In this document: one piece after another, positions 3,901 through 21,195 of the stretch
Layout of the letters: every line of letters begins with the position of its first letter
Numbering within the stretch: position 1 is the stretch's first letter
Source of the DNA: Candidatus Krumholzibacteriia bacterium
Lineage (GTDB): Bacteria > Krumholzibacteriota > Krumholzibacteriia > LZORAL124-64-63
Direction of reading: 5' to 3'
NCBI GenBank assembly: GCA_030592845.1
Contig: JAUVII010000001.1
Location: 2,392-66,391 of the forward strand
Length of the DNA stretch: 64,000 bases
The notes under the pieces: generated by a model
The model's database searches: none
The model's input: the letters and a program-made list of their open reading frames with translations, nothing else
What the model was told of the DNA's origin: nothing
Made by a program: the position numbers and the translations under genes

Positions 3901-5469
3901 CGCGTCGGCGACGGACATGTTGAAGTAATACCCGTGTCCGATCTGATTCACGATACCGTAATTGCCTGCATTCAAGGTATCGATCAGGGCCAGCCTGCTT
4001 AGCTGGGCCTCCATGGGATACAGGGTGTCGGTCTGGTACATCCTCGTGAATTCCATATCGGTACAGGGCTGGATGTAATCGTTGACCTGCTGATCAGAAT
4101 ACTGCGCGCCGTCGAGAATGATGTAGTCACCTTCGGGATAGTCCGAGGGGAACAGGACTTCGGCCGCAAAAAGGGCGCGATTGGCCCAATCAGCCGTGAC
4201 ATCGGCCGATTCATAGGAAATGACCTTGTTTACAAACACCGCCGCAGCGTCAGGAGTGCTGACCGTAGCCCGGCCGATATAGACTTCCTCGGCAAAATCG
4301 ACGAGGTCCCCCTCATTGCCGGTACTGGCAGGCTGGCCGAAATTGGCGTCCCCGTCGGCATTCCAGTTGCCATCGAGGCAGGCAAAATAGAGATCCACCG
4401 GGATGGAAGTATACCCGTTGGTGGGATAGAAGGAGTTGTCGATGTAACGCGGAGGCAATATGTCGGAGTCACCCGCCAGCAGGACATATTCAATACCCCA
4501 CTTCTGATAGGCGTCCAGAATATACATCCGGATGGTTTCCTGGATGTCGGCACCGTTGCGGTAATTGGCCCCGATGAATTCCCTGGTGGCCACGACCGTA
4601 GGCAAACCCAGTGACGTTTTGAAATCGGCCAGGACCTGGAACTGGGCGGCCATGTCTTCATTCGTGATGATCAGGTAGGTCACCCCACTGCCTTTGAGGC
4701 TCGGGGTCTGGTTGGGTTCGAAAGCCGCGGACTTGTCTTCGATTTCAAGGCCGTTTTCGCGGTTGTATCCGGAGATGACTTCGGGGTTGGCCACCAGATC
4801 GGCCAGCACACGGGCATTTTCCTGGGCTTCGCCGGGAATCAACCGTTGCCTGACGGCAATATCCCGCGGATCGCCAACTTTGCCGGTATCGAGACGGACG
4901 GCAAAACTGTCGAGGAACTCCAGTTCCACGCCGTTGTCGGTCTGGATTTCACGGACGGGATAAACACTGATTGTGACCAGACGGTAACCGCGCCAGACAT
5001 GGCTCCCGGTATAATCGCCCCAGGTGGCGGGAAATTCGGAACCCTCGCGGTTCATTTTGGTGTAGGTGACCATGTCCCCGGAATCGGTGAAATGGGGCGA
5101 GGCCAGGGCCAGGGGACTCCTGGGATACTCCCTGTGGGTGGCAAGGGGTTCGATCCACACCTGATCCACCGGAGTGTCGAGGGGTACCAGAAGAACCAGA
5201 TCACGGACCGGCAGTTGCGGAAGGCCCGGTTCATCCAGTCGACGGGTGCCGTCCAGCACAGGATACTGTATACCCTGGGGATCCGTTTCCCAGCGGAGGT
5301 CCTCCGCGCGGAAGCCGCCCTCATGGAGCACCTGACCGCCGGCGGCGGTTGCGCTACCGGGCGCCCACAAAAGTGATCCGGAAAGACACACGGAAAATAT
5401 CAGGGCAAAATGGACGAAGCGGAAGGATCGGATATTCAAACGAAGGGGGCGAACTCCGAAAACTGACAT
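979..5469 (-). CDS. secreted multidomain peptidase, family C25 (gingipain-like), with C-terminal FG-GAP/VCBS beta-propeller repeats
   Basis: Signal-peptide-like N-terminus from the ATG at 5469-5467 (MSVFGVRPLRLNIRSFRFVHFALIFSVCLSGSLLWAPGSATAAGG). C25 catalytic region: YLIITNEDMAAQF...YVLLAGDSDILPPRY...NGYTSIPVDLYFACLDGNWNADGD...IGHGYYFNMSV...LNCASGAFDN. At least 7 FG-GAP-like repeats: VGDVDGDGDQEIV, GDIDGDGEPEIVV, LADLDGDGAKEIIF, GDLDNNGQLEIVF, GDMDGDGMLEIIY, GDIDGDSSPDIIHG, TDLDADSDVDIVFG. The ORF ends at TAA 979-981. Confidence 0.85.
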   Translation of the reverse strand: MSVFGVRPLRLNIRSFRFVHFALIFSVCLSGSLLWAPGSATAAGGQVLHEGGFRAEDLRWETDPQGIQYPVLDGTRRLDEPGLPQLPVRDLVLLVPLDTPVDQVWIEPLATHREYPRSPLALASPHFTDSGDMVTYTKMNREGSEFPATWGDYTGSHVWRGYRLVTISVYPVREIQTDNGVELEFLDSFAVRLDTGKVGDPRDIAVRQRLIPGEAQENARVLADLVANPEVISGYNRENGLEIEDKSAAFEPNQTPSLKGSGVTYLIITNEDMAAQFQVLADFKTSLGLPTVVATREFIGANYRNGADIQETIRMYILDAYQKWGIEYVLLAGDSDILPPRYIDNSFYPTNGYTSIPVDLYFACLDGNWNADGDANFGQPASTGNEGDLVDFAEEVYIGRATVSTPDAAAVFVNKVISYESADVTADWANRALFAAEVLFPSDYPEGDYIILDGAQYSDQQVNDYIQPCTDMEFTRMYQTDTLYPMEAQLSRLALIDTLNAGNYGIVNQIGHGYYFNMSVADANFMTTDADQLTNGDHLFMIYALNCASGAFDNSCLLERFIQNPDGGAICSVGSVRAAFPNNSNNYQQGFFDLLYCTGEMRVGRLIALSRLPFIGLTDANYVDRWTFENYTLLGDPTLPIWTGSPSPVVLSGPSGLDLGPQTISFTITDDGSPVEDALVCIAKDTESHVYGLTDATGKVDLDFLPSSMGNATVSVTGKNLVMQVQQIPVTSGAGFAALSSMDVTDNGTSGSLGNGNQTVEAGETIALLASLLETGGSGLSGMTGVLSCADTTVTILTDTATFPAVGSGGSTVGQSHFVVEFHSNIRDAAKITFELDVTDGSNNFVSKWSVVVEAPEVEVVSMQWEDQTYGNGNGLLDMGERIRITARLKNFGAGMADNITGYLRSDDLNVVIYDSVATWIDLDLMDDKAGSVVYSLSVGNILGTVESRFDFVDNHGRVFSHDFSPWRPMAPLNITTDTSLGADVISLSWDPSATPNKYGYNVYRSLNEFGPFLRVNQDVIAGTSYFMDDNLDQLTRYYYKVATVDSSRVPSVLSDMVTQSTAPAELTGFPVPFANETSSHLAVGDVDGDGDQEIVLSSEQVYVFHHNGMELLDGDGDSQTLGVFTNFPSGYVFGPAGVALGNLDEIAGLEMIVSESSPGKKIHIFTRDGSELAGWPQALTSSIGSSWNWATPAVGDIDGDGEPEIVVNTLNGVVFAWHADGTEVRDGDSDPGTNGPFYVRDGAQWEWSRSGPALADLDGDGAKEIIFGTKNDASGIKRLMALKFDGTNAPGFPYQANAGITVDPCVGDLDNNGQLEIVFFDSARYLYAVREDGSNYPGFPVYMGFTAVHDWVSSPALGDMDGDGMLEIIYTPNQSGLVSRIVVVDTDHSGGTSGQVLPGWPVTLPGSSEGSPVVGDIDGDSSPDIIHGIGGGDESSPYNLYAYHATGDLVDGFPITLAGPLMPSAVITDLDADSDVDIVFGGWDFLIHVWDMPFA

Positions 5470-5952
5470 GCGGGGCCTCCAGATCGATCGGCATACGCAA
5501 CGGGGCGAATCCCAGCGCAGCCGGCGATTACACAAAAGTTGGCGAGGATCTGAACAGCGCTGTAACATCTGAACAATGAACCTCAGGGTCAAAATCTAAG
5601 ATGCCGAATCCTTTCCCTGGTCCGTGGAATCCCGAAAATTTCCGGACGATTCGGAAAAATATGGACCGTGGGAAATGTTGCACGTTAGCCTTGGCTGTTT
5701 GAGAAACCTCCAAAAAGCTTCTGGTGTGACCCTGAAACCGTGAAACGCATCGGAAAACACGTTTATGATTGACCAAAAAAACCGTACCCAACTGCTACGG
5801 AATTAGAAAATAACAATACCACAAACATAGCCATTGGTCAATGCCACAAAACCAATCCCCATTGGCATGAAATTGATTTAATCCTGCCATTTTACCTTTG
5901 TTTGGACAAACAAAAACCAGGGAGTTTTGATTTCACAAACGATAAAAGGTTG

Positions 5953-7314
5953 TTACGGAACAAGATCAAAGGTGGTCTGAGCCGGCAGAGCCACCAAAAC
6001 AGCTTCCGGGAAAGACCGCATATCACCGCGGGCCCCTGCCGCCCGGGCGAGAGCATTGCCGGGAACAGGCAGGATCCGTTTGCTCAATGTCGCGTTGCGC
6101 AGGATCACCAACCCGCCCTTGACTCTCCAACTGGTGCCGGACCTGTGGAGTTGCGCGATTTCATGATCCGTTAGAAAGACGGGAGAATTGTCCCGGTCGC
6201 CCGCAATCACACCCAGATATTGATCCAGGGCAGCCAGTCCCGTTTTCACCACCGACGTGTCGGTGTGGGCGAAATTAATCCGGTGGCTTTCAACAATGGC
6301 CGGTTCGCCCGCCGCCCAGGCCCGCCGGGTTTCGGCGACACAATGAAGGACCACCGCCCCCGGGTCCCGGGCCTGAACCGGTTCCAGACGGCAGTTTCGC
6401 TCCAGGTAGGTGCGGTCCGGATGGTGAAACCGATCCCAATGCCGGCCTATGTATTTACGCAGGCGACCGGATTTGCCCGACCCCCAATCGGCATTGATCT
6501 GTTCCCGTTTCCCCTGGATCACTCTCAAGTTACGGCTGCTCCACATATCTTCGATCCGGGCGTCCCAGTGGTAGTCGGGGGCAATAACCGATTGAACCTC
6601 ACGGCCGAAAAGTGATTCAAACCCCGCCAGGGATATGTCCAGATCATTCTCGAGATCCTGGATCCTGCGCCACGGCCCAAGTTCACGGGCGCGCTCACTT
6701 CCTGGAAACAGCATGATGTTCCGGCCCGTCACCGATTGGGCGAACTCACCATCAAGGGCGGCCTTTTTCCTCATGTCGGAATCGTAGTGCCAGGTTGCGT
6801 GGAATTCAGGATACCAGGTGCCACCGTTGATGCCCTCGGCCACCGCGTTCCAGAGGCCGGGCCGCTGGTACCCCGGGGGCAGATCCGGCAGATCATGACG
6901 GGCCCACTGATCATCCGCGTGGGAAAGGGAGGACATGACATAATTGGGTTGCAGCACGGCCGGATGTCCATCCCGCCCGAGGTGGGCCGCCAGAACCCGA
7001 TTGAGCCGGCCCACCATACTGCTGTCCTCAAGGGTGGAGAGCCAATAGACCTCGGGAAACGGGCCGGGATTCAGGCGCGTCCTGTCCAGATCACGCCAGG
7101 AATCACCGTGAGGTACAAAGCCGGCCAGACCCCAATCATCACTTTCGATGGCGATGGCTCTCAGCACCTGCCAGGAAACGGTACTGCGTGCTCCCCCGAA
7201 CAGGAAAGCGGCCCCGACCAATCCACAGACGAGAACAGCCAACGGAAGGACAATTTTGGAGGTCTGCTTCAATTTCCTGTTCCTTCCGCACCGGATATTG
7301 CCCGCGCCCACCAA
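5953..7314 (-). CDS. hypothetical protein with N-terminal membrane anchor, last gene of the polysaccharide cluster (possible polysaccharide-modifying enzyme; not recognised)
   Basis: 453-aa ORF. N-terminal TM (KIVLPLAVLVCGLVGAAFLF) followed by a large soluble domain (ESDDWGLAGFVPHGDSW...). Same strand as the upstream glycosyltransferase genes and overlaps them. Confidence 0.55.
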   Translation of the reverse strand: MVGAGNIRCGRNRKLKQTSKIVLPLAVLVCGLVGAAFLFGGARSTVSWQVLRAIAIESDDWGLAGFVPHGDSWRDLDRTRLNPGPFPEVYWLSTLEDSSMVGRLNRVLAAHLGRDGHPAVLQPNYVMSSLSHADDQWARHDLPDLPPGYQRPGLWNAVAEGINGGTWYPEFHATWHYDSDMRKKAALDGEFAQSVTGRNIMLFPGSERARELGPWRRIQDLENDLDISLAGFESLFGREVQSVIAPDYHWDARIEDMWSSRNLRVIQGKREQINADWGSGKSGRLRKYIGRHWDRFHHPDRTYLERNCRLEPVQARDPGAVVLHCVAETRRAWAAGEPAIVESHRINFAHTDTSVVKTGLAALDQYLGVIAGDRDNSPVFLTDHEIAQLHRSGTSWRVKGGLVILRNATLSKRILPVPGNALARAAGARGDMRSFPEAVLVALPAQTTFDLVP

Positions 7315-7946
7315 TAATGCCCGGGATCAAGACCATCGCGGCCGATGTTCCGCGCCAGGAGCGCGGTCTCTCCCCCGGCCGCAACGCCCGGGCCCAGCAT
7401 ATCCAAAACGGGCGCGGCCGCAATGGTATGACGATTACGAACCAGACCGAACTCCCAGACGGCCGCCTTTTGAAAAGACGAACTCCGGGTCTTGAATTCC
7501 TCGAGGGGGATCAGGGGGCCCCGGGATTCGGGCATCAGCCGGGCGAGAAAAGCCTGCAAATCACGGTAATTGATCTCACCCCGGGACGCCGTGCCTGGTT
7601 CATCCTCAAATATGAACAGGGAGCCTCCCGGTTTCAACAAATCCAGCCAGCGGCCCAAAAAAGAGAAATCGGCCAGGGCCGGAATCATGTGCCTCAGTAG
7701 ATTCGGAACCACCAATAGATCCAGCGATGCGGTCAACAACGGTGGGGAATCCGCCTCCCCGACGACATCGGCCACGGTCCCGCCCTGGGGATGGACCCGA
7801 TCCAGCCCCCAGGAGGTCACACCCAGATCAGACAGGGCGTCACGAAAACGCCCCGATCCACATCCGAGTTCCAATATCCGGGAAACAGGAAAATCCGCGT
7901 TGCGGCAGAAATCAGTGAAGATCTTTGGCAGGGGAGTGAATGACAT
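7269..7946 (-). CDS. class I SAM-dependent methyltransferase
   Basis: Motif I LELGCGSGRF; about 225 aa. Start chosen at MSFTPLPK. The ORF-track start at 7973 overlaps the WecA-like gene more. Confidence 0.7.
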   Translation of the reverse strand: MSFTPLPKIFTDFCRNADFPVSRILELGCGSGRFRDALSDLGVTSWGLDRVHPQGGTVADVVGEADSPPLLTASLDLLVVPNLLRHMIPALADFSFLGRWLDLLKPGGSLFIFEDEPGTASRGEINYRDLQAFLARLMPESRGPLIPLEEFKTRSSSFQKAAVWEFGLVRNRHTIAAAPVLDMLGPGVAAGGETALLARNIGRDGLDPGHYWWARAISGAEGTGN

Positions 7947-9189
7947 CCGGCCCTTCCTCCACCGCCGTTTCACTGCCCGAGGTCCCCTCCAGGATGATGT
8001 TCTTGGCCCGGGCCACCTTGGCCCGTTCGACCTGCAGGTCGATGATGTCGGCTACATTCTGGCCAACCTGTCCGGACAGCTTATCCAGACGGTCGTCAAA
8101 TCCCAGGGCATAGAAAAGTTCGGTGAACAGATCGAGACCGTGCTTGCGATTCTCCAGGTGACGCAGGGCGCCCAGTTGGCCGGCCCACATCCAGACACCC
8201 ATCGCGGGCAAGCCCAGCCAGGCCTGACCCAAGAAGTCGCTGAGGGCAAAAAGGGTGGTCCCGATGGTCACCAGCAACAGGCAGAAGACCGCGCCTGCCG
8301 GCGAGAAACCCAGGCGCAGCAGCCGGTGATGAAGATGAAAATCATCGGCGAGAAAAATGGAAGATCGCCGGCGGTAACGGCGGACGATCGTGGTCCCGGT
8401 ATCCCAAATGGGAACAATCATCGGAGCAATCATCACCGGAAGGCTGATGGGAACCTTCTGGCTCAGGTTCAGCAACAGACTGGCCAGGACCAGGCCCATC
8501 CACATACTGCCCGAATCACCCAGGAAAATCTTCCGTTTGCTGATGTTCCAATAGAAAAAAGCCACCGTGGCGCCACAGAGGGTGGCGGCAAAAAGGGTGG
8601 AGAACATTTCGCCGACGGCCAGGGAAATAACCATCAGGGCAATGGAGGCGACAATGCTGATACCGCTGGCCAAACCGTCCAGGCCATCGATGAGATTCAT
8701 GGAGTTGATGAATCCCAGGTACCAGAACAGGGTAAAGGGCCAGGCCCAGCCCCCCAGTTCAATGGAGCCCACGAGGGGCAGATAAACGGTGTCGAGGCGT
8801 TGGCCGAAAAGCATCAGCCCGACAATGACCAGGAGTTGGCCGTAGAGCTTTTTCTCGGCGTGGATCCCAAAGCGGTCATCTCCCACGCCAAGGGCGAGAA
8901 TGCAGACACCGGCGCCGATCAGGATACTCAGCCACGACCAGGGCAGCGCGGTGCGCAAAATAACATTTTCCAGGAAAAACAGGGCACAGAAGAAGGAAAT
9001 GAAGATGGCCATGCCGCCGGTTCGGGGCACGGGTTCACGATGAGGACGGCGGTAACCGGGGTGATCGACGATTTCCGTCAAAAAACCCAGGTTCCTGAAA
9101 TGGGGCTGGACCAACCATGACATCAGGAATGCCGCAGTAAAGCCAAGTGCTGCTACAATCCCCAGGTCCACGATTCCTCCTTGAAGCAT
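7912..9189 (-). CDS. MraY/WecA-family polyprenyl-phosphate sugar-1-phosphate transferase (initiating glycosyltransferase, GT4) with about 90-aa C-terminal cytoplasmic extension
   Basis: Multi-TM protein. It has a PRTGGMAIF N-terminal motif and NLIDGLDGLASG and FLGDSGS motifs. Confidence 0.85.
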   Translation of the reverse strand: MLQGGIVDLGIVAALGFTAAFLMSWLVQPHFRNLGFLTEIVDHPGYRRPHREPVPRTGGMAIFISFFCALFFLENVILRTALPWSWLSILIGAGVCILALGVGDDRFGIHAEKKLYGQLLVIVGLMLFGQRLDTVYLPLVGSIELGGWAWPFTLFWYLGFINSMNLIDGLDGLASGISIVASIALMVISLAVGEMFSTLFAATLCGATVAFFYWNISKRKIFLGDSGSMWMGLVLASLLLNLSQKVPISLPVMIAPMIVPIWDTGTTIVRRYRRRSSIFLADDFHLHHRLLRLGFSPAGAVFCLLLVTIGTTLFALSDFLGQAWLGLPAMGVWMWAGQLGALRHLENRKHGLDLFTELFYALGFDDRLDKLSGQVGQNVADIIDLQVERAKVARAKNIILEGTSGSETAVEEGPDVIHSPAKDLH

Positions 9190-9249: not shown

Positions 9250-10434
9250 TCAGGTTCCGGTGGGCAATCCTTTTTTATTTTGATCAATATCAAGCAATTC
9301 GCGGTAAACAGCAACCGTTAGCTCAGCAGTTCGGCTCCAGGACAATTCCCGGGCCCGGACACGTCCCCCGGCGGACAGTTTATTTCGCAGATCCCCGTCG
9401 AAGGCCAGGCGGGCCAAACCAGCGGCGATTTCCTCCGGGTTTTCCGGGTCTACCAGGAGGGCTTCCCCGGCCGCTACTTCGGCGGTTCCACCCCTGTCAG
9501 AGGTCAGGACAGGAATTCCCGCCGCCATCGCCTCGAGGACGGGCAGCCCGAACCCTTCATCCAGACTTGGGAAAACAAGGGCCCTGGCACCGCAATAGTA
9601 ACCCCACAGTTCGTCGAGATCGCAGTAGTCAACCATTTTGAGCCTGCCCCGGCCCTTCAGGCCCGCCACCCTTTCCCGCAACCGGGATTCTTTCCAACCC
9701 CGGCCACCGACAAGGACCAGGTCAGGCAGGGAATCGACAGGCATTCCCCGGGCCGTGTCACCAGACAGGAAAGAATCATAGGCGTCCAGAAGACGGGTCA
9801 GGTTCTTCCGCGGCTCAAGGGTGCCGACAAACAGAAAATAGGGACGGACAGACCCTCGACCCGGAAGCACCTCCGGGCACGACCGATCCCCGACCCACCG
9901 TGGCGTACCGTGCAGGGTCACGTGGATTTTTCCGGCTGCAGCCGGAAAAAAGTCCGCAGTACGCGAGGCCGTGGACCGGCTGTTGGCCACAATGGCATCC
10001 ACCTTGGCCAGGCTGCGGGGCACGAGAAACCTGTAATAGCTGAGACGCGGTTCCCCGATCGTTTCAGGGTAAAGAAGCCAGGCCAGATCGTGCACCGTGG
10101 CCACCTGTGGAATGGAACATCGCAACGGTACGAGGAACTGCATGCTGTGCAGGAGATCCCCTCCCAATCTCCTGACCAGACCTGGCAGTTGGAACTGGGT
10201 GAACCACGCTTTCCGGAAGGCTCCGCCCCTCGCCCGCGGACACTCGATAATCCGCCAGTTGGCCCGGCCTTCCAGATCCTTGAACATATCCCGTCCGGTG
10301 GTCAGGACAGAAAAATCCAGACCCCGATCCTGATCGGCAAGGGCGGCGCACAGGTCCAGAATTCCCCGGCCTGTCCCGGTGGGATTCGACCTGACTTGAA
10401 GGGCCTCCAGGATGATTTGGGGACGACTGGTCAT
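9250..10434 (-). CDS. glycosyltransferase family 1 (GT4-type)
   Basis: EGFGLPVLEAMAAGIPVLTSD motif typical of GT1/GT4 retaining glycosyltransferases. Confidence 0.85.
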   Translation of the reverse strand: MTSRPQIILEALQVRSNPTGTGRGILDLCAALADQDRGLDFSVLTTGRDMFKDLEGRANWRIIECPRARGGAFRKAWFTQFQLPGLVRRLGGDLLHSMQFLVPLRCSIPQVATVHDLAWLLYPETIGEPRLSYYRFLVPRSLAKVDAIVANSRSTASRTADFFPAAAGKIHVTLHGTPRWVGDRSCPEVLPGRGSVRPYFLFVGTLEPRKNLTRLLDAYDSFLSGDTARGMPVDSLPDLVLVGGRGWKESRLRERVAGLKGRGRLKMVDYCDLDELWGYYCGARALVFPSLDEGFGLPVLEAMAAGIPVLTSDRGGTAEVAAGEALLVDPENPEEIAAGLARLAFDGDLRNKLSAGGRVRARELSWSRTAELTVAVYRELLDIDQNKKGLPTGT

Positions 10435-11885
10435 GACTCCGATTCCCCTGTCATCAGGAATTCCGTATCAGCCAGGAGAGCCATCATCAAACCCAACGAC
10501 ACCCAGATGTGCGGCAGGTTGTACTGCGAGAAGGTCAGGAGTTGGAACCAGACGCCCACCCCGGAGATGGTGACCGCCAACAGGAGGCGACCCTGCAAAC
10601 GGCCGGATTGTCCGGAGAGCGGCCCGGACGGGAACAGTTCAGCCCAACGCCTCCGGATCCCCCTGAGCAGCCCCGCGGCCCAGCCGAGAAAAACGAGAAA
10701 ACCCACCAGCCCCGTCTCACAAAGAACAAGCAGGGGAAAATTGTTGACCACCGGCCAGGTGAATTGGCTTTGAAGCCCCATGGGGTCAACCAGGACCGGA
10801 AAATGCCACCCGAATTGGCCCCACCCGATTCCCAGGACCGGGCTCAGCAAAAAAGCGCGCCACGCGGCCTGCATACTGTAGAGGCGGGTCAGATTGGACC
10901 AGTCGTGGCTGCTGAAGGTCTGGTACAACCGGCGGAAGGGAAACAGCGCGCCTTCCCAGCCTGCGGCAAGACCCACCAGGGGAACCGCCACCAACAGGAC
11001 AGTCAAACCCGCGACCATCAGTTTGGCTTTCCGCGCCTCGAACCCGAACATCTCCCGACGGGAATTTCCTGGAAGGGAGAATACCAGAACCAGGGCCAGT
11101 ACCACCTGTCCCATGAAACCGAGCCAGGCGCCACGAGACCAGGTGGCCCACAAAAGGATCAGCAGGGAACCGCCCAGCCATTGTCTGGTCCGAACCGACA
11201 AAAATGGAACAAGGGTGAAAGGCCACAGGAAAAGAAGAAAATTACCCAGGTACAGGGGTTCGCAAATCGTTCCGCGAAGGCGGGGCACGTGGCGAAAGGA
11301 ATCCCCCAGGTAAAGTTCAACCGACCCTGACAGGATGGAGGGGTTGGAAGTGAAAACGCCGTCCAGCCAGACGTAGCCCACAAGAGGATTGAAAAAATTG
11401 ATGCCTTGAAAAAGACTGTAGACAACCTGGAAGGAACCTCCAAGCAGCAGGAGTTTTACGGTCCAACTCCAACGTCTGGCGCCGCGAGTCCACCAGGCCG
11501 GCCAGAGGGCAAAAACAGCCATGACACACAATTGCACCACTTGTTTAATGAACCGCCCCAGCGTTTCGGCCAACGGCTCGGCGGAGGGCGCCAGCCACAG
11601 CCCGGCAAGTGAGAACAGGACGCTGGCCAGGACAGCGCCGACACCCACCAGCCACCAGCGCTGTATCCCGGGCCGAAACAGATCACGCAATCCGGGCGGG
11701 GTCTTTCCCTGGCGCAGGAATTCCAACATCCGACACAGGACCGCGATCGCCAGAAACGCCCAGGAAGGCTGAAGTCCCCCGCCCACATCCCTTCCCGTGG
11801 AAAGTTTCAGAACACCCACGCCGGCCCAGGGCAGGGTTACCAAAGCGGCCCCATAGAAGAAGGTGGCGCAACGGGCCAGCATCAC
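10431..11885 (-). CDS. O-antigen ligase / Wzy_C family polymerase-like membrane protein
   Basis: About 12 predicted TM helices. GIGWGQFGWHF loop motif characteristic of the Wzy_C / WaaL family. 4-bp overlap with the GT1 gene. Confidence 0.75.
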   Translation of the reverse strand: MMLARCATFFYGAALVTLPWAGVGVLKLSTGRDVGGGLQPSWAFLAIAVLCRMLEFLRQGKTPPGLRDLFRPGIQRWWLVGVGAVLASVLFSLAGLWLAPSAEPLAETLGRFIKQVVQLCVMAVFALWPAWWTRGARRWSWTVKLLLLGGSFQVVYSLFQGINFFNPLVGYVWLDGVFTSNPSILSGSVELYLGDSFRHVPRLRGTICEPLYLGNFLLFLWPFTLVPFLSVRTRQWLGGSLLILLWATWSRGAWLGFMGQVVLALVLVFSLPGNSRREMFGFEARKAKLMVAGLTVLLVAVPLVGLAAGWEGALFPFRRLYQTFSSHDWSNLTRLYSMQAAWRAFLLSPVLGIGWGQFGWHFPVLVDPMGLQSQFTWPVVNNFPLLVLCETGLVGFLVFLGWAAGLLRGIRRRWAELFPSGPLSGQSGRLQGRLLLAVTISGVGVWFQLLTFSQYNLPHIWVSLGLMMALLADTEFLMTGESES

Positions 11886-12463
11886 AACCTCGACCTCTCG
11901 TCAGATTTCAACCGGGCACGCCGCAGCAGAACGATGATCATGAGAGTCATGCCCGCCAACAGAAGAAGCCCCGACTTGAAGTCCGAGCCACCGGCCGCCG
12001 GTCGGCGATAACGGATCATGGCGCCGCGGATCTCCAGTTCCCCACCGGTCATCCGCAACTCGATCAAGCCGTCGGCCAAGACAAGAGGTTCCGATACCGG
12101 GAATATCCCATCCTGGAAAAGCAGCTGCCCACTGGAACCGGAACCTTCCAGAAATTCGGTACAGGCAAACCCGATGTCCCGTCTGCCGAAATCCTCGACC
12201 GGAAAGGAAGCGGGAATGATGAGGAGACCCTCTTCCCATCTCAAGGTCCTGAAGCCGGGGATGGCGTCGGTTTCCCAAACAAACCCGGAAACCGAATCCC
12301 TGACGGCTTCGATAACCACATAACCCTGCTGGCCCAGGCGCTGGTTTTGATCGGGCTGCCCCTGAGCATGGCCGCAGGGAACAAACAGTACCAGGCAAAC
12401 CAACCCACCCAACCAGCCGCATGGCCGTAAACGGTTTATCAAATCATGAATCGGGGTCAACAT
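11882..12463 (-). CDS. hypothetical exported protein with C-terminal TM anchor
   Basis: ATG at 12463. Signal-like RLRPCGWLGGLVCLVLFVPCGHAQG. C-terminal hydrophobic segment LLLLAGMTLMIIVLL followed by RRARLK. 4-bp overlap with the ligase gene. Confidence 0.5.
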   Translation of the reverse strand: MLTPIHDLINRLRPCGWLGGLVCLVLFVPCGHAQGQPDQNQRLGQQGYVVIEAVRDSVSGFVWETDAIPGFRTLRWEEGLLIIPASFPVEDFGRRDIGFACTEFLEGSGSSGQLLFQDGIFPVSEPLVLADGLIELRMTGGELEIRGAMIRYRRPAAGGSDFKSGLLLLAGMTLMIIVLLRRARLKSDERSRL

Positions 12464-13308
12464 TTAGCCCGGCCCGCAATCATGGCCCCCACCACCCGGC
12501 ACCACAGGGAATCCTCCTGGCCGGCCCTGGAAAAACCGGCCGCCAGATTATCCTCCCCCGCCACCTGGTGGACCCCCACGGGGATCCCGTCGCAGGATTT
12601 TTCCGCCAACCTGACGATGCGCGCCAGATCGCTCGAATCGTACCGAAGGGCAGCAATAGTGCAGATTTCATCGAGCCAACCGGGCTGACCGGCGGACGAC
12701 CAGGCATTGGGGAACAACAGGATTTCAATACGGTCGGGCCTGACCACTTCGGCCAGCCGGCCCAGGTAATAGTTTGGTCCGAATTGTCCGGCTTCATCCT
12801 CCTGCAGGCACCAGACCAGACCGCCGGAACCGTTGCCGGGAAGAAGTCCTGCAGTCCGAACTGCCGCCAGTGATTCCAGGTGGGCCATTTCTGTCCTGCC
12901 TACACACCCCAGGTGATTCCACTGAATTCCCCGGGCCGGGGCCGCCTCCGGCTGGGCGGCGGAATTCCGGCCGCGCTTTTCCGCGGCAATGGTCCAGGTG
13001 TTCCGGTGGTCCCCATCCTCCCCTGCAAAAACCCGACCGTGGCCGCCCTCACTGATGAGAAATGTGCCGGCGGACCAACGAATCCGGTTGTCCTCCACGA
13101 GGGTGGAAGATCCCGATGAACCGAGAGCCAATCCAGCCGCCGCAAACGCGGAAATGGCCGCGCCACCCGGCGCGGCCACGGCGCATTGGCAAATATCCCG
13201 GGTGGAATCCCCCACAATTCCGGGACGACTTTCCTCAAGGAAAAGATGAGCTATGGATGAAATATGGTGGGGCCGTTTGGGAACGGCCCCGGAATCGGTT
13301 CGCGCCAT
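12457..13308 (-). CDS. hypothetical protein
   Basis: Co-directional with the cluster. GGAGAA RBS 8 nt upstream of ATG (MARTDSG...). No recognised motif. Competing plus-strand ORFs are antisense in a high-GC region. Confidence 0.4.
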   Translation of the reverse strand: MARTDSGAVPKRPHHISSIAHLFLEESRPGIVGDSTRDICQCAVAAPGGAAISAFAAAGLALGSSGSSTLVEDNRIRWSAGTFLISEGGHGRVFAGEDGDHRNTWTIAAEKRGRNSAAQPEAAPARGIQWNHLGCVGRTEMAHLESLAAVRTAGLLPGNGSGGLVWCLQEDEAGQFGPNYYLGRLAEVVRPDRIEILLFPNAWSSAGQPGWLDEICTIAALRYDSSDLARIVRLAEKSCDGIPVGVHQVAGEDNLAAGFSRAGQEDSLWCRVVGAMIAGRAKC

Positions 13309-13396: not shown

Positions 13397-14470
13397 TCAG
13401 GTGACGACAACCAAGCTGTTGGCTCCGCCGAACTCATTGGGTACCGTCCGGCTGTTGTGGGGATCCGGCAGCCAGGAACCGTCGACAATGAAACGGTACT
13501 CGTGCTGGCCATGGGCAAGATCCAGATGACATTCCCACATGCCGTCCTCGCGCTTGCTCAGGGGCAGCCCCTTGGCGGACCAGTCACAGAACGATCCGGT
13601 GATTCTCACTGTTCGGGCCCGGGGGAAATCCGCTTCGAAACGAACTCCGGCCTCGGAAACGGCCGGCCCATGCAGGAGAGCTGTCCAGTGATCCAGTGCA
13701 ACCACTTCCAGGGCCACTTCCTGGTCGATCAGTTCCCGGGCAAGTTGCCTGAAATCGAAGGCGGCACGGGATTCCGGATCAAGCTTCGCTACGGGAATTC
13801 CCGCCCCCGCCGCCTCCTTGACCTTCACGGTATGATGGATGACGGTGTCCAGGAGGTCGCCGTCGTACAATTCCTCCAACTCCTCCATGACCTTCCTGAC
13901 AAAGAGGGGCCGGGTGTCGAAATTCGACATCAGGATGTGGGGAATGACATCGTGGCCCTTCTTTTCCCGCAGAACCGACAGGGTTTCCCGCATCTTGCGA
14001 ACAGCCTGCAGGCTGTAACCGCTGGGATCCACGGGAATGATGACCTCGCCGCAGGCCAACAGGGCATTGAAGGTCAGCAGGCTCACGCTGGGAGGGCAGT
14101 CGATCAGGATGTAATCGTAGGGCAGCGAACTGCGGCGAAGGTTGTTCCGCAGGCGCATCTCCTTTTCCGGCTCCCGGGCCAGGGTCATTTCCACACCACT
14201 GAGTTCGATGCCGGCCGGAACCAGGTGCAAACCGGGGCCGGCTTCCAGGAAGGCGTCCTCGACCAGGATGTCCGAGGTCAGGAACAGATCATGGGTGCTG
14301 AGGGTGAAATCCCGTTCGTGGAAACCGCAGGCCAATGTGGCGTGGCCCTGGGGATCGTTGTCGATGAGAAGGACTTTTTTTCCGATTTGGGCCAGAGTTG
14401 AGGCAAGGTTGGTGGCGGTTGTCGTTTTACCGCATCCGCCTTTCTGGTTGGCCAGAGCAACGACTCTCAT
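13397..14470 (-). CDS. ParA/MinD-family P-loop ATPase fused to a C-terminal AMPK-beta-type glycogen-binding domain (CBM48)
   Basis: N-terminus MRVVALANQKGGCGKTTTATNLA (deviant Walker A) and IDCPPS. C-terminal about 85 aa RTVRITGSFCDWSAKGLPLSKREDGMWECHLDLAHGQHEYRFIVDGSWLPDPHN...GGANSLVVV. This matches the AMPK beta GBD pattern GSFNNWS..PL....F...L.LP.GEH.YKF.VDG.W..DP. Confidence 0.8.
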   Translation of the reverse strand: MRVVALANQKGGCGKTTTATNLASTLAQIGKKVLLIDNDPQGHATLACGFHERDFTLSTHDLFLTSDILVEDAFLEAGPGLHLVPAGIELSGVEMTLAREPEKEMRLRNNLRRSSLPYDYILIDCPPSVSLLTFNALLACGEVIIPVDPSGYSLQAVRKMRETLSVLREKKGHDVIPHILMSNFDTRPLFVRKVMEELEELYDGDLLDTVIHHTVKVKEAAGAGIPVAKLDPESRAAFDFRQLARELIDQEVALEVVALDHWTALLHGPAVSEAGVRFEADFPRARTVRITGSFCDWSAKGLPLSKREDGMWECHLDLAHGQHEYRFIVDGSWLPDPHNSRTVPNEFGGANSLVVVT

Positions 14471-14637
14471 ATCGAATCCTTTCGATTATGAATCGTAGAG
14501 CGCAACCTCCCGGATATGAATCCGTCCGGGATATTGTGTTTTACCTCTATGCGTAAAGGCCAGCGGGCCCCCACTCCGCAGGCAATTGAATCCAGCATAC
14601 GGGCAGGAGATGGGCTGTCAACAGGTTTAACCGGAAT

Positions 14638-17265: not shown

Positions 17266-17697
17266 TCAATCATCCCCAAAAGGATTGAGAGGCTTCTTCT
17301 TCCGGAACTCCTTCAGATCCTCCCCCATCTGATCCATTTTCTTTTGCTGCTTGTCCCGGTGTTCGCCGGAATCGAAAAGCCTGGACATCTTTTCGGCCTC
17401 CTCGGATTTGCGCCGGTCGAATTCCCGCAGATCTTCGGATATCTCAGGACCCCCTTCCTCGGGCAGACCTTCGACGGCAAGATGGTCCCGGACTTCCGCA
17501 TGGGTTTCATAGGCGCTTTTGACCAGGTCGATGGCGCCCAGATCCTCCAGGAGAACCAGATGAAGCCTCACGGAACTGGCGGACTGCTGCAACAGGTCGG
17601 CCAGTTCCTCGGGACTTGGCGCCCTGCCGGTCAGGTGACCCAGAACCCTGATCCCGGCCAGCAGCAACTGGGCTTCATCCCTGGTCAGATTGATCAT
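17266..17697 (-). CDS. hypothetical small protein with acidic/lysine-rich C-terminal tail
   Basis: 143 aa. Overlaps the mrfB-like stop by 23 bp. No recognised motif. Confidence 0.45.
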   Translation of the reverse strand: MINLTRDEAQLLLAGIRVLGHLTGRAPSPEELADLLQQSASSVRLHLVLLEDLGAIDLVKSAYETHAEVRDHLAVEGLPEEGGPEISEDLREFDRRKSEEAEKMSRLFDSGEHRDKQQKKMDQMGEDLKEFRKKKPLNPFGDD

Positions 17698-18910
17698 TAT
17701 CCCATCTCCGATCCGCCCCTGAAGGGCGGTCCATCATTTTCAGCAATCGACTAACCCTTTGATCCTCGCCCGATTTCCGGGCGTGGTCAAGGGCCTTCGG
17801 CAAATCCACCAGGCGGTGTTCATACAGAATGGCCGCTTCCCGATGCAGCCAGGGAGTGTCAACGTCCGCGGCAAGACCGTCCAGAATGATTTTCTCCACC
17901 AGGACCCAATCCCCTCCCCTTTTCAGGATGCGCACCGCGTCTCCCAGAAAACGCGGATCCCCCAGGCCATGGTCCTTGCGCCGGGGAGCCGTGTCCACGG
18001 CCGCCTCCAGGCAGGCGATGGACAGATGTGTATCGCGCCGCCTTTCGCAGATCCGGCCCATGGCCCAACCTTCCAGCCAATTCATTTCCGCAGTTGGTTT
18101 CGAACCGCTTTCCACCAAACGCGCGGCCTCTATGACCCGCAGAAAAAGGGAGCTCATCCCCAACATGTCCCGATGATTGTGGATCATGACCTCGGGCAGC
18201 AGGCCGGGCCGGCCGGTCGTCAGGAAATCGAACCAGGTTTGAGGGATGCAGGAGCCATCGATATCACCCGCCCCCCTATCCAGACCGCAAACTTCCCTTT
18301 CAAGTGTCTGTTGACGGCAATTTTCCAGACGGTTGCCCCACAAACGCCGGGAAGGCACCAGCAGATCCCAGCCCGCCAGGGATCCGAAGGGATCTTCAAG
18401 ACGGTTCAACCGCGCACGCGTCCTAAGCAAAGGAAGATCATAGGAAGCGCCGTTGAAGGTGACCACAACCCTGAATCCGGAAGCCAGATCGGCCAATTCA
18501 ATCAACAGGGCGGCCTCATGCCCGGGGTCGGGAAGAAAATACTGCCGGGTGTGCAGGCCGCCGCTCCCCCACCAGGATACTCCCACCAGAAATGGGATCG
18601 TCCCGGTGCCTCCAGCCAGACCGGTGGTTTCCGTGTCCATGAACAGGATTTCGCCGGGATCCTGGACAGGCTCCTTAAACCCGGTAAAAAACTCGTGCAA
18701 GCCTGGCAGGGGGAGATAAGGGGCGGGCAGGACGTCGCAATGAGATCGTGTCCAAAACGGACCGTGGGATCCCGTGTGTTCCTCCAGCCCCATTTCAAGG
18801 AGGGATCCCGACCGATCCCCGGAAACATCCTCGCCAGGTCGGTTTGCGGGCATGGAAGCGGGACGGCGGGAAAGCCTGTCCAACTGGGCCAGTCTCTTTT
18901 TCAGATCCAT
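17675..18910 (-). CDS. mrfB: YprB/MrfB-like RNase-H-fold 3'-5' exonuclease
   Basis: DEDD exo I motif ILFMDTETTGLAGGTGTIPFLVGVSW. ATG (MDLKKRLAQL) overlaps the helicase stop (ATGA). TPR-like C-terminal half. Confidence 0.7.
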   Translation of the reverse strand: MDLKKRLAQLDRLSRRPASMPANRPGEDVSGDRSGSLLEMGLEEHTGSHGPFWTRSHCDVLPAPYLPLPGLHEFFTGFKEPVQDPGEILFMDTETTGLAGGTGTIPFLVGVSWWGSGGLHTRQYFLPDPGHEAALLIELADLASGFRVVVTFNGASYDLPLLRTRARLNRLEDPFGSLAGWDLLVPSRRLWGNRLENCRQQTLEREVCGLDRGAGDIDGSCIPQTWFDFLTTGRPGLLPEVMIHNHRDMLGMSSLFLRVIEAARLVESGSKPTAEMNWLEGWAMGRICERRRDTHLSIACLEAAVDTAPRRKDHGLGDPRFLGDAVRILKRGGDWVLVEKIILDGLAADVDTPWLHREAAILYEHRLVDLPKALDHARKSGEDQRVSRLLKMMDRPSGADRRWDNDQSDQG

Positions 18911-18912
18911 GG

Positions 18913-21195
18913 TCAAGCCTCGCCGGCGGCCTGACCTGTTTGCCCCAACAGCCAACGGGCGCCCTTGCTGGCCGTTGTCCCGGAATCCACGGCCGGGCCG
19001 ACGCAGGAAGGACATCCCTTCTCGCAGGGACACTGCGAAAGATGCCTTTTGGCGGCAAGACAGATATCCTCGAACTGTTCGAAGATCCGCCGGGCGTAGC
19101 CGACTCCGCCGGGGAAGGCATCGTACAGATAGAGCGTGGGATTCCCGGTGAAGGGAGACCGGACCATGGCGGTGGCATGAAGGTCGGCCGGATCGGCCAT
19201 GATGAACAGCGGGGCCACGCGCCCCAGCAGATGCGCCACACCCTTGAGGGCATCACCGAGGTCAAGCCCCTCGGCCGACATCACCGTCCCCAGGTCCGCC
19301 GGCAACTCCCACCAGAAACTGGTGGTGTGCATTTCCATCTCCGGAAGATGCACCCTCCCGGCGCCGACGTTTTCATGGGTCCCCAGTTTGATCTTCTTGT
19401 AGACGGTGACCTTGGAAACAAGCCCCACATCGCCCAGGGCCAGTTCTCCGAAGTGGAATCCCCTGCCCTCCTCGGCGGTCAGGGTCTTGAGCTCACTCTT
19501 GCGTAGCGCGTCCGTATAGTATTCCACGGTCACGGGCTGTACGTGGGCCTCCCGCCTGTCCCAGTCCAGCTTGTCCACGTGGTACTGCTGGGCACCGTGA
19601 ATGTAAACGGCATCGTCATGAAGCATTTCCTGGGCGCTGAACAGGTCCATTTCCCCGATGACACGGCCGCCCTGCGGGGCCTTGTCGATGATGACGACGT
19701 TGTCGGGCGCCGCGCTTCGCAGACTGACGTCCTCGGCGGGATAGGTGTCGCTCACCCAATGGTATCTGTCCCCACTGTGGTGGAGCACCTTCATGTCCGC
19801 AAGATAGTCGAGGATCTCCGCAACTTCGCGCCCTCCGAAATTTTCCTGCGACCCGAAGGGCAATTCGAAGGCGGCACATTTCAGATGACTCATGAGGATG
19901 ACCAGGTTGTCCGGGTCCAGGGAAGCGTGTTCCGGGCTGCGGCCGAAAAAATAGTCCGGGTTGTTGATGATGTACTGGTCGCCGGGACTGCTTGAGGCGA
20001 CCAGCACCACCGCGCTCAGGTTCTGCCTCCGTCCCGCGCGCCCCGCCTGCTGCCAGGTGCTCGCGACTGTGCCGGCATACCCGGCCATGATGCAGACATC
20101 CAGGCGGCCGATATCAATCCCAAGCTCCAGGGCGTTGGTGGATACCACGGTGGTAACGGTCCCATCCCGCAGACCCGATTCGATCGCCCGGCGTTCGGTC
20201 GGCAGGTATCCACCCCGGTAACCCCGGACTTCGCCGCTCTTGATGCCCACCCGGCGGCCGGATTTTTCGAGATAGGTCAGCAGGAGTTCCACCCGCATGC
20301 GGCTGCGGGCAAAAACAATGAGTTGGGCGCCGGAGGACATGAAACGTTCGGCGATCGCGCGGGTGGTCTTGATCACCGAACGCCGGATGCCGAGTTCCCG
20401 GTTCACCACAGGCGGGTTATAGAAAATGAAATGCTTCCGGCCCCTGGGAGCCCCGTTCCGGTCGATGATCTTGACGTCCAGGCCGGTGAGCCTGGAGGCC
20501 AGCTCCCCCGGGTTGGCGATGGTGGCGGAGCAGCAGATGAACTGGGGGTCACTGCCATAGAAGTTGGCCACGCGGCGCAGGCGGCGAATGACGTTGCCCA
20601 CATGACTGCCGAACACGCCCCGGTAATTGTGAACTTCGTCGACGACCACGAATTTAAGGTTTTCGAACAGCTTCACCCACAGGGTGTGATGAGGAAGAAT
20701 TCCCTGGTGGAGCATATCCGGATTGGTGACCACGATATGTCCGCTGCTGCGAATGGCGCGCCGCGCGGTTGCCGGAGTATCCCCGTCAAAGGTGAAAGTC
20801 TTGATGTCCTCGCCCAGGTCAGTGACGATGCCGTGGACCTCGTGCATCTGGTCCTGGCTGAGGGCCTTGGTTGGAAAAAGATAAAGCGCGCGGGAACGGC
20901 GGTCCCGCAGAATCGCGTCCAGTACCGGCAGGTTGTAACAGAGGGTCTTGCCGCTGGCCGTGGGCGTGGGTACGACGAATGAATGTCCCTGGCGGGCCAG
21001 TTCCACCGCCTCGGCCTGATGGCTGTAGAGACGATCGACGCCCCGGTTTTTCATGACATCGATCAGCCGTGGTTCGAGGCTGTCGGGGTATTCCGAATAG
21101 TGTCCCGGCTCAGGCGGGATCACTTCCCAACGGTTGACGTTGCGCAGGAACCGGTCATCGGCCTTCAGCTGGTCAAGTAGCTGGGCAAGATTCAA
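18913..21195 (-). CDS. mrfA: YprA/MrfA-like DEAD/DEAH-box helicase with C-terminal DUF1998 zinc module
   Basis: Walker A PTPTASGKTLCYNLP. DEVH box (VVVDEVHNYRG). Helicase C motifs. C-terminal CPCEKGCPSCVGP four-Cys cluster. Confidence 0.8.
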   Translation of the reverse strand: MNLAQLLDQLKADDRFLRNVNRWEVIPPEPGHYSEYPDSLEPRLIDVMKNRGVDRLYSHQAEAVELARQGHSFVVPTPTASGKTLCYNLPVLDAILRDRRSRALYLFPTKALSQDQMHEVHGIVTDLGEDIKTFTFDGDTPATARRAIRSSGHIVVTNPDMLHQGILPHHTLWVKLFENLKFVVVDEVHNYRGVFGSHVGNVIRRLRRVANFYGSDPQFICCSATIANPGELASRLTGLDVKIIDRNGAPRGRKHFIFYNPPVVNRELGIRRSVIKTTRAIAERFMSSGAQLIVFARSRMRVELLLTYLEKSGRRVGIKSGEVRGYRGGYLPTERRAIESGLRDGTVTTVVSTNALELGIDIGRLDVCIMAGYAGTVASTWQQAGRAGRRQNLSAVVLVASSSPGDQYIINNPDYFFGRSPEHASLDPDNLVILMSHLKCAAFELPFGSQENFGGREVAEILDYLADMKVLHHSGDRYHWVSDTYPAEDVSLRSAAPDNVVIIDKAPQGGRVIGEMDLFSAQEMLHDDAVYIHGAQQYHVDKLDWDRREAHVQPVTVEYYTDALRKSELKTLTAEEGRGFHFGELALGDVGLVSKVTVYKKIKLGTHENVGAGRVHLPEMEMHTTSFWWELPADLGTVMSAEGLDLGDALKGVAHLLGRVAPLFIMADPADLHATAMVRSPFTGNPTLYLYDAFPGGVGYARRIFEQFEDICLAAKRHLSQCPCEKGCPSCVGPAVDSGTTASKGARWLLGQTGQAAGEA

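Follow-up and report, generated by a model that had tools for sequence, protein, structure and literature searches.

A ParA/MinD-type ATPase fused to an AMPK-beta-type CBM48, with a candidate partner gene: a possible positioning module for alpha-glucan granules

The stretch of DNA analysed here (the window) comprises 64,000 nucleotides of a Candidatus Krumholzibacteriia bacterium (GenBank assembly GCA_030592845.1, contig JAUVII010000001.1, positions 2,392 to 66,391), and the gene under study lies in it at 13397..14470 on the minus strand. It encodes a protein of 357 amino acids (aa), with the stop codon at 13397-13399, and it was recognized as an open reading frame (ORF), by Pfam and PDB-sequence matches and by the presence in the databases of the exact protein (P0001) together with 119 further clusters. 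Judged by sequence, the product is a bona fide ParA/MinD ATPase followed by a bona fide carbohydrate-binding module (CBM) of the AMPK-beta type, family CBM48. The ATPase domain is formed by residues 1-250 (13721..14470, minus strand), with the Walker A motif KGGCGKTT at residues 10-17 (14420..14443, minus strand), both placed by alignment column counts. It is followed by a linker of residues 251-284 (13619..13720, minus strand), the least conserved part according to the domain census and the per-domain identities, and by the CBM48 at residues 285-357 (13400..13618, minus strand), delimited by Pfam and by alignment to the CBM of AMPK beta-2. A preliminary description of this DNA had proposed a ParA/Soj ATPase with a deviant Walker A at the N-terminus, an AMPK-beta glycogen-binding domain at the C-terminus and a boundary at about residue 270. 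The first is borne out by the Walker motif and the Pfam and PDB matches, and the second by the string GSFCDW...HEYRFIVDGSW..DP at residues 292-337 and by PF16561; the proposed boundary is correct, the profile check having set the end of the ATPase at about residue 250 and the linker and CBM as given above.

The fusion protein and its conserved residues

In Pfam, AAA_31 matched residues 1-170 (E 1.5e-46, 159 bits against a cut-off of 27) and CbiA residues 4-227 (E 1.5e-18, 67 bits, cut-off 25.4), the ParA/NUBPL profile gave 45 bits (cut-off 27.1) and CBP_BcsQ matched the ATPase with E 6e-15. At the other end of the protein, AMPK1_CBM (PF16561) covered residues 285-356 (E 3.5e-13, 50 bits, gathering cut-off 26.8) and CBM_48 residues 269-333 (E 2.5e-7, 31.4 bits, cut-off 22.4). 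Among the PDB sequences, the N-terminal 250 residues resemble ParA/Soj (8ray_B, E 8e-43; Thermus thermophilus Soj 1wcv, E 3e-36), with further matches to 6iub (Soj) and to McdA (6noo, E 2e-12). The C-terminal ~70 residues aligned with AMPK beta-2 and beta-1 CBM chains (E 1e-10 to 1e-8) and more weakly with the CBM48s of GlgB and SEX4. In NCBIfam, the ParA_partition profile NF041546 gave 124 bits (cut-off 180), so that the equivalog level was not reached; RepA (TIGR03453, 77 bits against 348), the BcsQ equivalogs (TIGR03371, 91 against 158; NF007460, 24 against 399) and the curated MinD cut-off were likewise missed. A bacterial tyrosine (BY) autokinase was discarded, as the two BY-kinase profiles scored below cut-off (TIGR01007, 43 against 108 bits; TIGR03018, 35 against 231) and the C-terminus is a CBM48 and not a tyrosine cluster. 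The protein begins straight at the first beta-strand of the P-loop (MRVVALANQKGG) without a signal peptide, and its expected location is accordingly the cytoplasm. The cytoplasmic ligand known for CBM48 is glycogen.

Residue conservation was scored in 39 distant homologues (32-55% identity) and in 103 close Krumholzibacteria orthologues. The alignment column counts showed K10, K15, D37, D39 and D124 to be invariant across the distant set. K10, G11, G12, G14 and K15, that is, the deviant Walker A with its signature lysine, are kept in 39/39 distant homologues and 103/103 orthologues, D37/D39 constitute the Walker A' and D124 the Walker B. In the P-loop KGGCGKT, Cys13 is kept in 37 of the 39 distant homologues and can thus be taken as a signature of the family; Soj, MinD and NifH have Val or Ile at this position, and a redox or metal role is conceivable. 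R187 (35/39) and K/R218 (36/39) align with R189 and R218 of Bacillus subtilis Soj, the arginines by which Soj binds DNA non-specifically. The fusion lacks a C-terminal amphipathic helix because its C-terminus is the CBM.

Regarding the sugar contacts, the HMMER alignment places W100, K126, W133, L146 and N150 of AMPK beta-1 at W297, R326, W333, F347 and N351 of the fusion, L146 and N150 being sugar contacts in the structure of the AMPK beta-1 CBM with cyclodextrin. In the distant homologues W297 is present in 39/39, position 326 is K or R in 37/39, position 333 is W in 37/39 and Y in 2/39, position 347 is F, Y, L or I in at least 29/39 and position 351 is N in 30/39; in the close orthologues the five positions are identical in 101-103 of 103. 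Mutation of W100, K126 or W133 in AMPK beta-1 abolishes or weakens glycogen binding (PMC6274970). The catalytic and the glucan-binding residues of the fusion are intact and under purifying selection. An unrelated beta-sandwich without glucan-binding residues, which the preliminary description had named as a case against itself, was looked for and was not what the profiles found.

The homologue search covered 5.8 billion proteins, in clusters at 90% identity. The 120 clusters listed have 66-100% identity to the query, all of them carry PF16561 and nearly all are 357 aa long; the assemblies behind them are those of NCBI, JGI, ENA and Logan, and their named members are Krumholzibacteriota. An exhaustive HMMER search was carried out on representatives at 50% identity, and the best 150 matches were used for a domain census. 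Of these, 127 run ParA-linker-CBM48, 11 show ParA alone, and another 10 are unrelated proteins with several CBM48s. Among the last, P0121, P0124, P0158, P0186 and P0244 are 1300-1900 aa long, with 6-18 tandem CBM48-like repeats and no relation to ParA, and they reached the top matches through the CBM alone. Relatives of the query were found in at least 574 species (one genome per species), a figure that counts ParA-type matches, part of which were examined for the CBM. The best 80 loci span more than 12 phyla and include Krumholzibacteriia, Latescibacterota, Eisenbacteria, Gemmatimonadales, many Omnitrophota, Planctomycetota (with a metagenome-assembled genome (MAG) of Kuenenia), Myxococcota, Thermodesulfobacteriota, Acidobacteriota, Rokubacteria, Margulisbacteria, Gammaproteobacteria and Nitrospirota. 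A chimera of assembly, the other case that had been raised against the fusion, was discarded, since the same 357-aa form recurs in over 120 clusters drawn from four independent sources of data and occurs in distant phyla as well.

In the 103 Krumholzibacteria orthologues the mean identity was 78% for the CBM, 78% for the ATPase domain and 73% for the linker. Across the census the spacer between ParA and CBM measured 4-355 residues, with a median of 37, the long spacers were of low complexity and rich in A, E, D, P and S, and the CBM was always the C-terminal element of the ParA-linker-CBM48 representatives. Taking together the variable length, the low complexity of the long forms and the terminal position of the CBM, the spacer looks like a flexible leash and not like an allosteric insert. 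The idea that the CBM replaces the surface by which ParA proteins meet their partners was not borne out: the module is an addition at the end of a flexible tether.

The downstream gene and its N-terminal peptide

Directly downstream of the fusion gene lies a strong candidate for its partner or adaptor, by sequence and position. This gene (12457..13308, minus strand) encodes 283 aa from the ATG at 13308, which is the NCBI start, or 296 aa from an alternative GTG at 13347, and no Pfam or NCBIfam family matched it. It diverges much faster than the ATPase: in one locus its identity is 30%, against 77% for the ATPase. Its most conserved part is the N-terminus: 44 homologues share the near-invariant block R12-P-H-H-I-S-S-I-A-H-L-F-L24, in which I16, S17, A20, H21 and L22 are invariant. 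The corresponding peptide of the window, KRPHHISSIAHLFL (residues 11-24; 13237..13278, minus strand), is proposed as an ATPase-contacting motif. The protein was modelled by AF2 with an alignment of 41 sequences, which gave a mean confidence (pLDDT) of 77.8 and a predicted TM-score (pTM) of 0.78; the single-sequence run gave only pLDDT 33. In the model, residues 1-36 are disordered and the remainder forms an alpha/beta domain, for which a MinD/Mrp/FlhG-like fold is predicted, with McdA, FleN and FlhG among the fold matches. The position of the P-loop reads VAAPGGAAISAF, without GK[ST], so that the protein would be a pseudo-NTPase, that is, a nucleoside triphosphatase fold lacking this motif. 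Comparison with the ParA-CBM alignment by hhalign gave no match. The preliminary description had seen no obvious ParB-like or adaptor gene nearby; considering that the very next gene is conserved and carries a ParB-like N-terminal peptide, this was not borne out.

The ORFs that flank the fusion in distant loci were then grouped by clustering. In Myxococcota and other distant loci a gene of ~290 aa lies directly downstream of the fusion, and with an iterated hidden Markov model (HMM) this distant family was traced in 28 loci, offset by -82 to +313 bp. Its HMM matches the ParA-CBM proteins themselves (E 1e-8 to 1e-4), which indicates a remote ParA/MinD ancestry; a few members retain GK[ST] at the P-loop. 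The N-termini of the distant partners read LGRGLEDVSHLFLS, PRDLADVLHYFLPE or RRLSEISHLFLSD, and hhalign joins them with the Krumholzibacteria KRPHHISSIAHLFLEE over the N-terminal block alone, with E 0.005. Apart from this motif, the Krumholzibacteria partner could not be joined to the distant family at the sequence level by BLAST, the iterated HMM or hhalign, and the link between them rests accordingly on motif, position and fold class.

An HMM of the 13 motif columns was run on all stop-to-stop peptides in the six frames of 83 loci. The best 39 matches were all on the strand of the ATPase, at distances of -13 to +385 bp from its stop, and matches became scattered only above E ~2. The motif was also recovered in loci outside the HMM build (L024, L053, L029, L060, L019, L040, L003, L004, L001/2), and further variants are visible in L006, L034, L045, L065, L072 and L073. 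At least 60 of the 83 loci have a motif-bearing gene adjoining the fusion. In 19 loci of Omnitrophota and Planctomycetales the flanking gene is found upstream instead. Its product of ~190 aa has the pattern K[DE]EIY[DE]HLAK[IV]YL[DG] and a poly-Lys run, together with a beta-rich domain and a single helix that is predicted to span the membrane. Its core LAKIYLD follows the same pattern as IAHLFLE with a shift of one residue, and this protein is a probable variant of the motif-bearing partner. In loci of Rokubacteria, Acidobacteria and Gemmatimonadales, what follows the peptide is another small domain, perhaps of the PD-(D/E)XK type as judged by eye only.

Some observations on particular loci stand beside these. 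A domain of ~200 aa has a pattern like GEIDLLAVDRxxQLTIIDFE and no Pfam match, and its possible resemblance to PD-(D/E)XK nucleases was likewise judged only by eye. It was located in L039 (9088-9789), L049 (4175-4921), L014 (9115-9643), L050 (9849-10526) and L017 (10165-10809), where it either bears a peptide LGRGL..SHLFLS itself or is a third gene behind a pseudo-ParA partner. Another group is composed of close relatives of the ATPase without the module: in the Nitrospirota locus L075 (7929-10097) the protein, of 722 aa, has a long C-terminal extension instead of the CBM, and P0222 and P0245 have no CBM or a different C-terminal extension. Relatives of these types are still flanked by a MerR gene on the upstream side and by a gene with the motif on the downstream side, and since they stand next to the motif without having the CBM, the partner module may predate the fusion.

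The LGRGLE of the distant motif is identical to that in the N-terminus of T. thermophilus Spo0J, MSRKPSGLGRGLEALL (GLGRGLEALL, verified in PDB 1vz0). The N-terminal peptide of Spo0J stimulates the ATPase of Soj by means of its arginine. More generally, partners of ParA/MinD proteins act through disordered, charged N-termini (PMC10241942, PMC11407121).

Gene neighbourhoods in the window and in other phyla

On the minus strand of the window, the order of genes is the ATPase, a gap of 50-89 bp, the partner, a protein of 193 aa, a Wzy_C protein, a family-4 glycosyltransferase (GT4), a gap of 60 bp and a WecA-like protein. The 193-aa product (11882..12463) is a predicted membrane protein of no known family with hydrophobic segments near both ends, its start overlaps the stop of the partner by 7 bp and it is conserved in Krumholzibacteria loci only. 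The Wzy_C gene (10431..11885), for an O-antigen ligase/polymerase-like membrane protein (PF04932, E 1.5e-11), and the GT4 gene (9250..10434), assigned by Pfam, each overlap the preceding stop by 4 bp. The last gene of this tight cluster encodes a polyprenyl-phosphate sugar-1-phosphate transferase of the WecA/MraY family (7912..9189; Glycos_transf_4, E 3e-34), on which TIGR02380 gave 128 bits with a cut-off of 326. The NCBIfam matches of the GT4 were all far below their cut-offs, and its identity as a glycogen synthase was rejected: there was no Glyco_transf_5 signal, and glgA_Coryne gave 55 bits against 302.

Upstream of the fusion gene, at 168 bp, there is a co-directional DUF212 gene. The scan for promoters in this gap gave 3 sites where 1.7 were expected, among them a sigma-70-like match TTGACA-16-TATGCT (14594..14621, minus strand) with 10/12 positions, which is a consensus match only, and the terminator scan was uninformative (13 sites, 12 expected). 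Given that the DUF212 gene is so near and runs in the same direction, the fusion is only probably the first gene. The preliminary description, which made it the first gene of a co-directional cluster with an O-antigen ligase, glycosyltransferases and WecA, was right about the cluster, missed the two intervening genes and was too firm about the order.

The full arrangement was also found in L001 and L003, and L002 is truncated behind the GT4; L006 and L007 again have Wzy_C and WecA-like genes near the fusion. In the 75 distant loci, however, neither of these neighbours was present in any. The weight that had been put on the downstream cluster is therefore not justified for the family as a whole, the linkage being confined to close Krumholzibacteria loci, and we read the position of the pair at the head of an envelope-glycan operon as a lineage-specific co-expression and not as the core function of the family. 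A Pfam scan of 29 ORFs of the window detected no parB and no cellulose synthase gene, and those outside the cluster were ordinary chromosomal genes (panBC, valS, uvrB, groEL, a sigma-70). The locus is syntenic over 20 kb with a contig of 4.7 Mb, with panBC, a helicase and a PpiD-like gene as flanks. A partition gene of a plasmid or phage was rejected on account of this synteny with a chromosomal contig and of the housekeeping flanks.

Other genes of the window deserve mention. Right after the WecA-like gene there is a protein of 453 aa without family (5953-7314, minus strand), and further on a protein of 1537 aa with a Peptidase_C25 (gingipain-type) domain, FG-GAP repeats and CarboxypepD_reg (979-5592, minus strand); both are also present in L001, and together with Wzy_C, GT4 and WecA they may form a unit for surface proteins and glycan anchoring. 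A helicase with DEAD, Helicase_C and MZB (DUF1998) domains (18913-21195, minus strand) is followed by an RNase_H_2-like protein (17675-19033, minus strand), a pair conserved in L001. Beside valS, a protein of 851 aa (46056-48611, plus strand) combines PDZ, GAF and a SpoIIE-type PP2C phosphatase, an unusual architecture for a sensor phosphatase.

The search for glycogen genes was performed by phmmer, with the E. coli Glg and Mal proteins and a seed of glycoside hydrolase family 57 (GH57), on all ORFs of the loci, with confirmation by Pfam. Enzymes of glycogen metabolism were found as neighbours of the fusion in four phyla. The closest locus outside Krumholzibacteria by identity is L008 of Latescibacterota (41%). 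Downstream of its fusion gene, and on the same strand, lie two Glyco_transf_5 glycosyltransferases, a GH57 with the C-terminal domain of branching enzymes and an alpha-glucan phosphorylase. Between its ParA-CBM48 gene and the two glycosyltransferases of starch-synthase type there is also a small free-standing CBM48-like candidate ORF (9763-10140, plus strand; VYLVGDFNDWDP), partly overlapped by other candidate ORFs. In L078 the neighbours are GH77, GH57 with DUF3536, glycogen phosphorylase and a GT4, and in L012 a GH57 and a GlgA-like glycosyltransferase. In 10 loci of Omnitrophota and Planctomycetales a GH57 lies upstream of the fusion with only the ~190-aa partner in between. With regard to regulators, a MerR-family gene is immediately upstream of the fusion in 9 loci and a sigma factor of the extracytoplasmic function (ECF) type is downstream in 7.

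It was also possible to see in Omnitrophota and Planctomycetales a recurrent string of genes, formed by an Alginate_exp-type outer-membrane porin, in some cases the GH57, the 190-aa membrane partner, ParA-CBM48, a membrane protein of 108 aa and a protein of 140 aa with a weak match to EF-Tu domain 2 (L032, L036, L037, L047, L048, L054, L056, L059 and others). This string suggests that one form of the system is tied to the membrane or envelope. The Kuenenia homologue is that of L082, from a MAG of Candidatus Kuenenia stuttgartiensis, a bacterium whose cells contain glycogen granules. A MAG of Krumholzibacteriota has been reported as rich in starch and glycogen hydrolases (PMC10936416).

Proposed function and alternative explanations

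We propose, with a probability of about 0.45, that the fusion is the ATPase of a two-protein module of the ParA/MinD type that tethers or positions cytoplasmic alpha-glucan granules. What carries this reading is the architecture with its intact residues, a fusion kept widely with a tether of variable length, the motif-bearing neighbour and the glycogen enzymes nearby in other phyla. The ATP-bound dimer would sit on the nucleoid, in agreement with the retention of both Soj DNA-binding arginine positions, and the CBM48 at the tip of the flexible C-terminal tether would grip glycogen, coupling the granules to the nucleoid-bound ATPase. The downstream pseudo-MinD/ParA would contact the dimer through its disordered ParB-like N-terminal peptide and lead to ATP hydrolysis and release. 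Such a bind-and-release cycle, in the manner of ParA, would distribute or anchor the cargo, so that granules would be spaced and inherited by both daughter cells. We infer each of these steps, namely DNA binding, glycogen binding, the contact between partner and ATPase, the stimulation of the ATPase and the effect on the position of granules. The preliminary description had suggested that the protein tethers or positions glycogen-like granules: the link between ParA and glycogen gains independent support from the neighbourhoods in other phyla, and the effect on the granules keeps its conditional form.

Several results weigh against this proposal. The window has no glycogen gene among its scanned ORFs, and in it the pair is translationally coupled to the Wzy_C/GT4/WecA genes. 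Genes of alpha-glucan metabolism within ~6 kb were found in only 13 of the 75 distant loci, many of the 13 being on short contigs, and the remaining distant loci have MerR, ECF sigma or unrelated neighbours. The motif-bearing protein of Omnitrophota and Planctomycetales is a membrane protein, and this points to a link with the membrane that the picture of nucleoid and granule leaves unexplained. In canonical ParA systems it is the activating partner that sits on the cargo; a ParA that holds its own cargo offers no obvious diffusion ratchet, and static tethering or regulation may fit better. Lastly, no cultured carrier was found, as the cluster names and a second homologue search gave only uncultured or MAG entries. 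Because of the lack of glycogen genes in the window, the envelope-glycan operon, the membrane-anchored partners and the self-held cargo, our confidence was kept below one half.

The last of these features would suit a switch better than a ratchet. On this explanation the fusion would be a sensor or regulator of glycogen status, in which, as in AMPK beta, the CBM reports on alpha-glucan or is sequestered by it, and glucan binding would decide where or whether the ATPase and the pseudo-ATPase work on some other target, such as transcription or a complex of enzymes. The MerR and ECF genes next to the fusion speak in its favour, as does the existence of regulatory MinD-like ATPases, FleN and FlhG being among the fold matches of the partner, and in the AMPK-beta subtype to which this CBM belongs the binding of glycogen regulates the kinase (PMC6274970). 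No output domain or target could be identified, however, the variable and at times very long disordered tether has the look of a physical linker and not of an allosteric connection, and the DNA-binding arginine positions and the ParB-like peptide are hallmarks of positioning systems that work on a matrix. We regard a sensor as unlikely, although deserving of attention. The genes of the window itself bring to mind a different role, that of a BcsQ-like factor for the localization or assembly of the adjacent Wzy_C/GT4/WecA-like envelope machinery, with the CBM bound to its cytoplasmic sugar intermediates or product. The pair heads a tight operon in the window and in L001-L003, with overlaps of 4-7 bp from the partner to the GT4, the Wzy_C and WecA-like genes recur in L006 and L007, Pfam gave the CBP_BcsQ match, and the motif-bearing partner of Omnitrophota is a membrane protein beside an Alginate_exp porin. 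This role is improbable considering that the linkage is absent from all 75 distant loci, that TIGR03371 stayed below its cut-off while the ParA/Soj matches were much stronger, that the CBM retains the residues specific for the recognition of alpha-1,4-glucan and that no cellulose or other synthase gene is present in the window. We know of no CBM48 that binds heteroglycans linked to undecaprenyl pyrophosphate.

It could also be thought that the protein is an ordinary ParA (Soj) for partition of chromosome or plasmid, with an accessory domain and DNA as its real cargo. Its nearest solved relatives are indeed Soj/ParA proteins, both arginine positions by which Soj binds DNA are retained, the peptide of the partner is similar to the N-terminus of ParB and the databases speak of a chromosome partitioning protein. 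Nevertheless, the neighbour has no ParB domain by Pfam or NCBIfam and its fold is MinD-like and not ParB-like, parB was not detected among the scanned ORFs, the locus is an ordinary chromosomal neighbourhood, NF041546 fell short of its cut-off and the CBM is as strongly constrained as the ATPase. We consider this very improbable.

By comparison with known systems, the tethering or positioning module proposed here most resembles the orphan ParA systems such as McdAB. As in McdA-McdB, PpfA-TlpT, ParC-ParP and PomXYZ, the ATPase is small, of ParA type, without an N-terminal extension and not beside parB. As in the McdAB type, a fast-evolving partner, here a candidate one, is encoded alongside, with a disordered N-terminus that likely contacts the ATPase (PMC10241942), McdA matches both the body of the partner and the ATPase domain, and the presumed cargo is a cytoplasmic metabolic inclusion. 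The differences are that the ATPase bears a tethered cargo-binding module, whereas in the Mcd systems only the partner touches the cargo, that the cargo would be a polysaccharide and not a protein shell, and that the partner is a pseudo-NTPase and not a condensate-forming protein like McdB. Soj(ParA)-Spo0J(ParB) contains the best relatives of the ATPase domain in sequence and structure (1wcv, 6iub), with the deviant Walker A and the R189/R218 positions kept, and the partner motif LGRGLEDVSHLFLS has LGRGLE in common with the N-terminus of Spo0J; unlike Spo0J, the partner has no ParB or helix-turn-helix domain and no parS context, and unlike Soj, the fusion misses the ParA_partition cut-off and has the additional CBM48 and the Cys of KGGCGKT.

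The CBM is of the same subtype (PF16561) as those of AMPK beta, SnRK1 beta and plant PTST (Protein Targeting To Starch), with the five sugar-contact positions conserved. In PTST the CBM48 serves as the starch-targeting module, and in all of these it brings a non-catalytic protein to an alpha-glucan particle; those are, however, eukaryotic scaffolds for kinases or starch synthases, and here the module is on a bacterial P-loop ATPase of the positioning type. BcsQ, or BcsQ-BcsR, is likewise an ATPase of the ParA/MinD family that heads a polysaccharide operon and works with a small partner, but the fusion is below the equivalog cut-off, it has no bcsA/B genes around, the BcsQ-like context occurs in Krumholzibacteria only and BcsQ itself has no CBM. 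FlhG, a MinD-like ATPase, uses its N-terminal peptide to activate FlhF, a second SIMIBI NTPase. In contrast, the peptide-bearing protein described here lost its own P-loop in most lineages, the protein that would be activated is a ParA and not a GTPase of the signal recognition particle type, and there is no flagellar context.

The ATPases of the ParA/MinD group place chromosomes, plasmids, carboxysomes, chemoreceptor arrays, flagella and the division site. A search of full-text literature gave nothing relevant that links ParA to CBM48 or to glycogen granules, with few subscription papers covered, so that this absence is not proof. A review of the family from 2024 and a study of H. neapolitanus from 2023 describe no carbohydrate cargo, and the words glycogen and carbohydrate do not appear in them (PMC11407121, PMC10241942). 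A wider claim can be put forward, in our opinion doubtful although worth stating: that ParA-CBM48 and its peptide-bearing partner are an unrecognised and phylogenetically broad partition system for glycogen granules. It would have the first polysaccharide cargo and the first ATPase that grips its cargo with a tethered module of its own, and it would be reset by a pseudo-ATPase with a ParB-type peptide or, in some phyla, by a membrane protein or possibly a nuclease-like protein, this last by eye only.

If the proposal is true, glycogen-like granules would be a new kind of cargo for the ParA family, and placing the cargo-binding module on the ATPase itself would be a new design principle for ParA systems. 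The members of the fusion family are now called AAA family ATPase, ParA family protein or chromosome partitioning protein, and thousands of database entries with the last name are probably misnamed. The CBM could be of use in synthetic biology as part of a compact tag for targeting glycogen, and the natural variation in tether length and in partner type can be exploited experimentally. With a fusion in one gene that names its own ligand, and a conserved partner with a recognizable putative activating peptide, the family would provide a simple and testable handle on how bacteria organise and inherit their glycogen.

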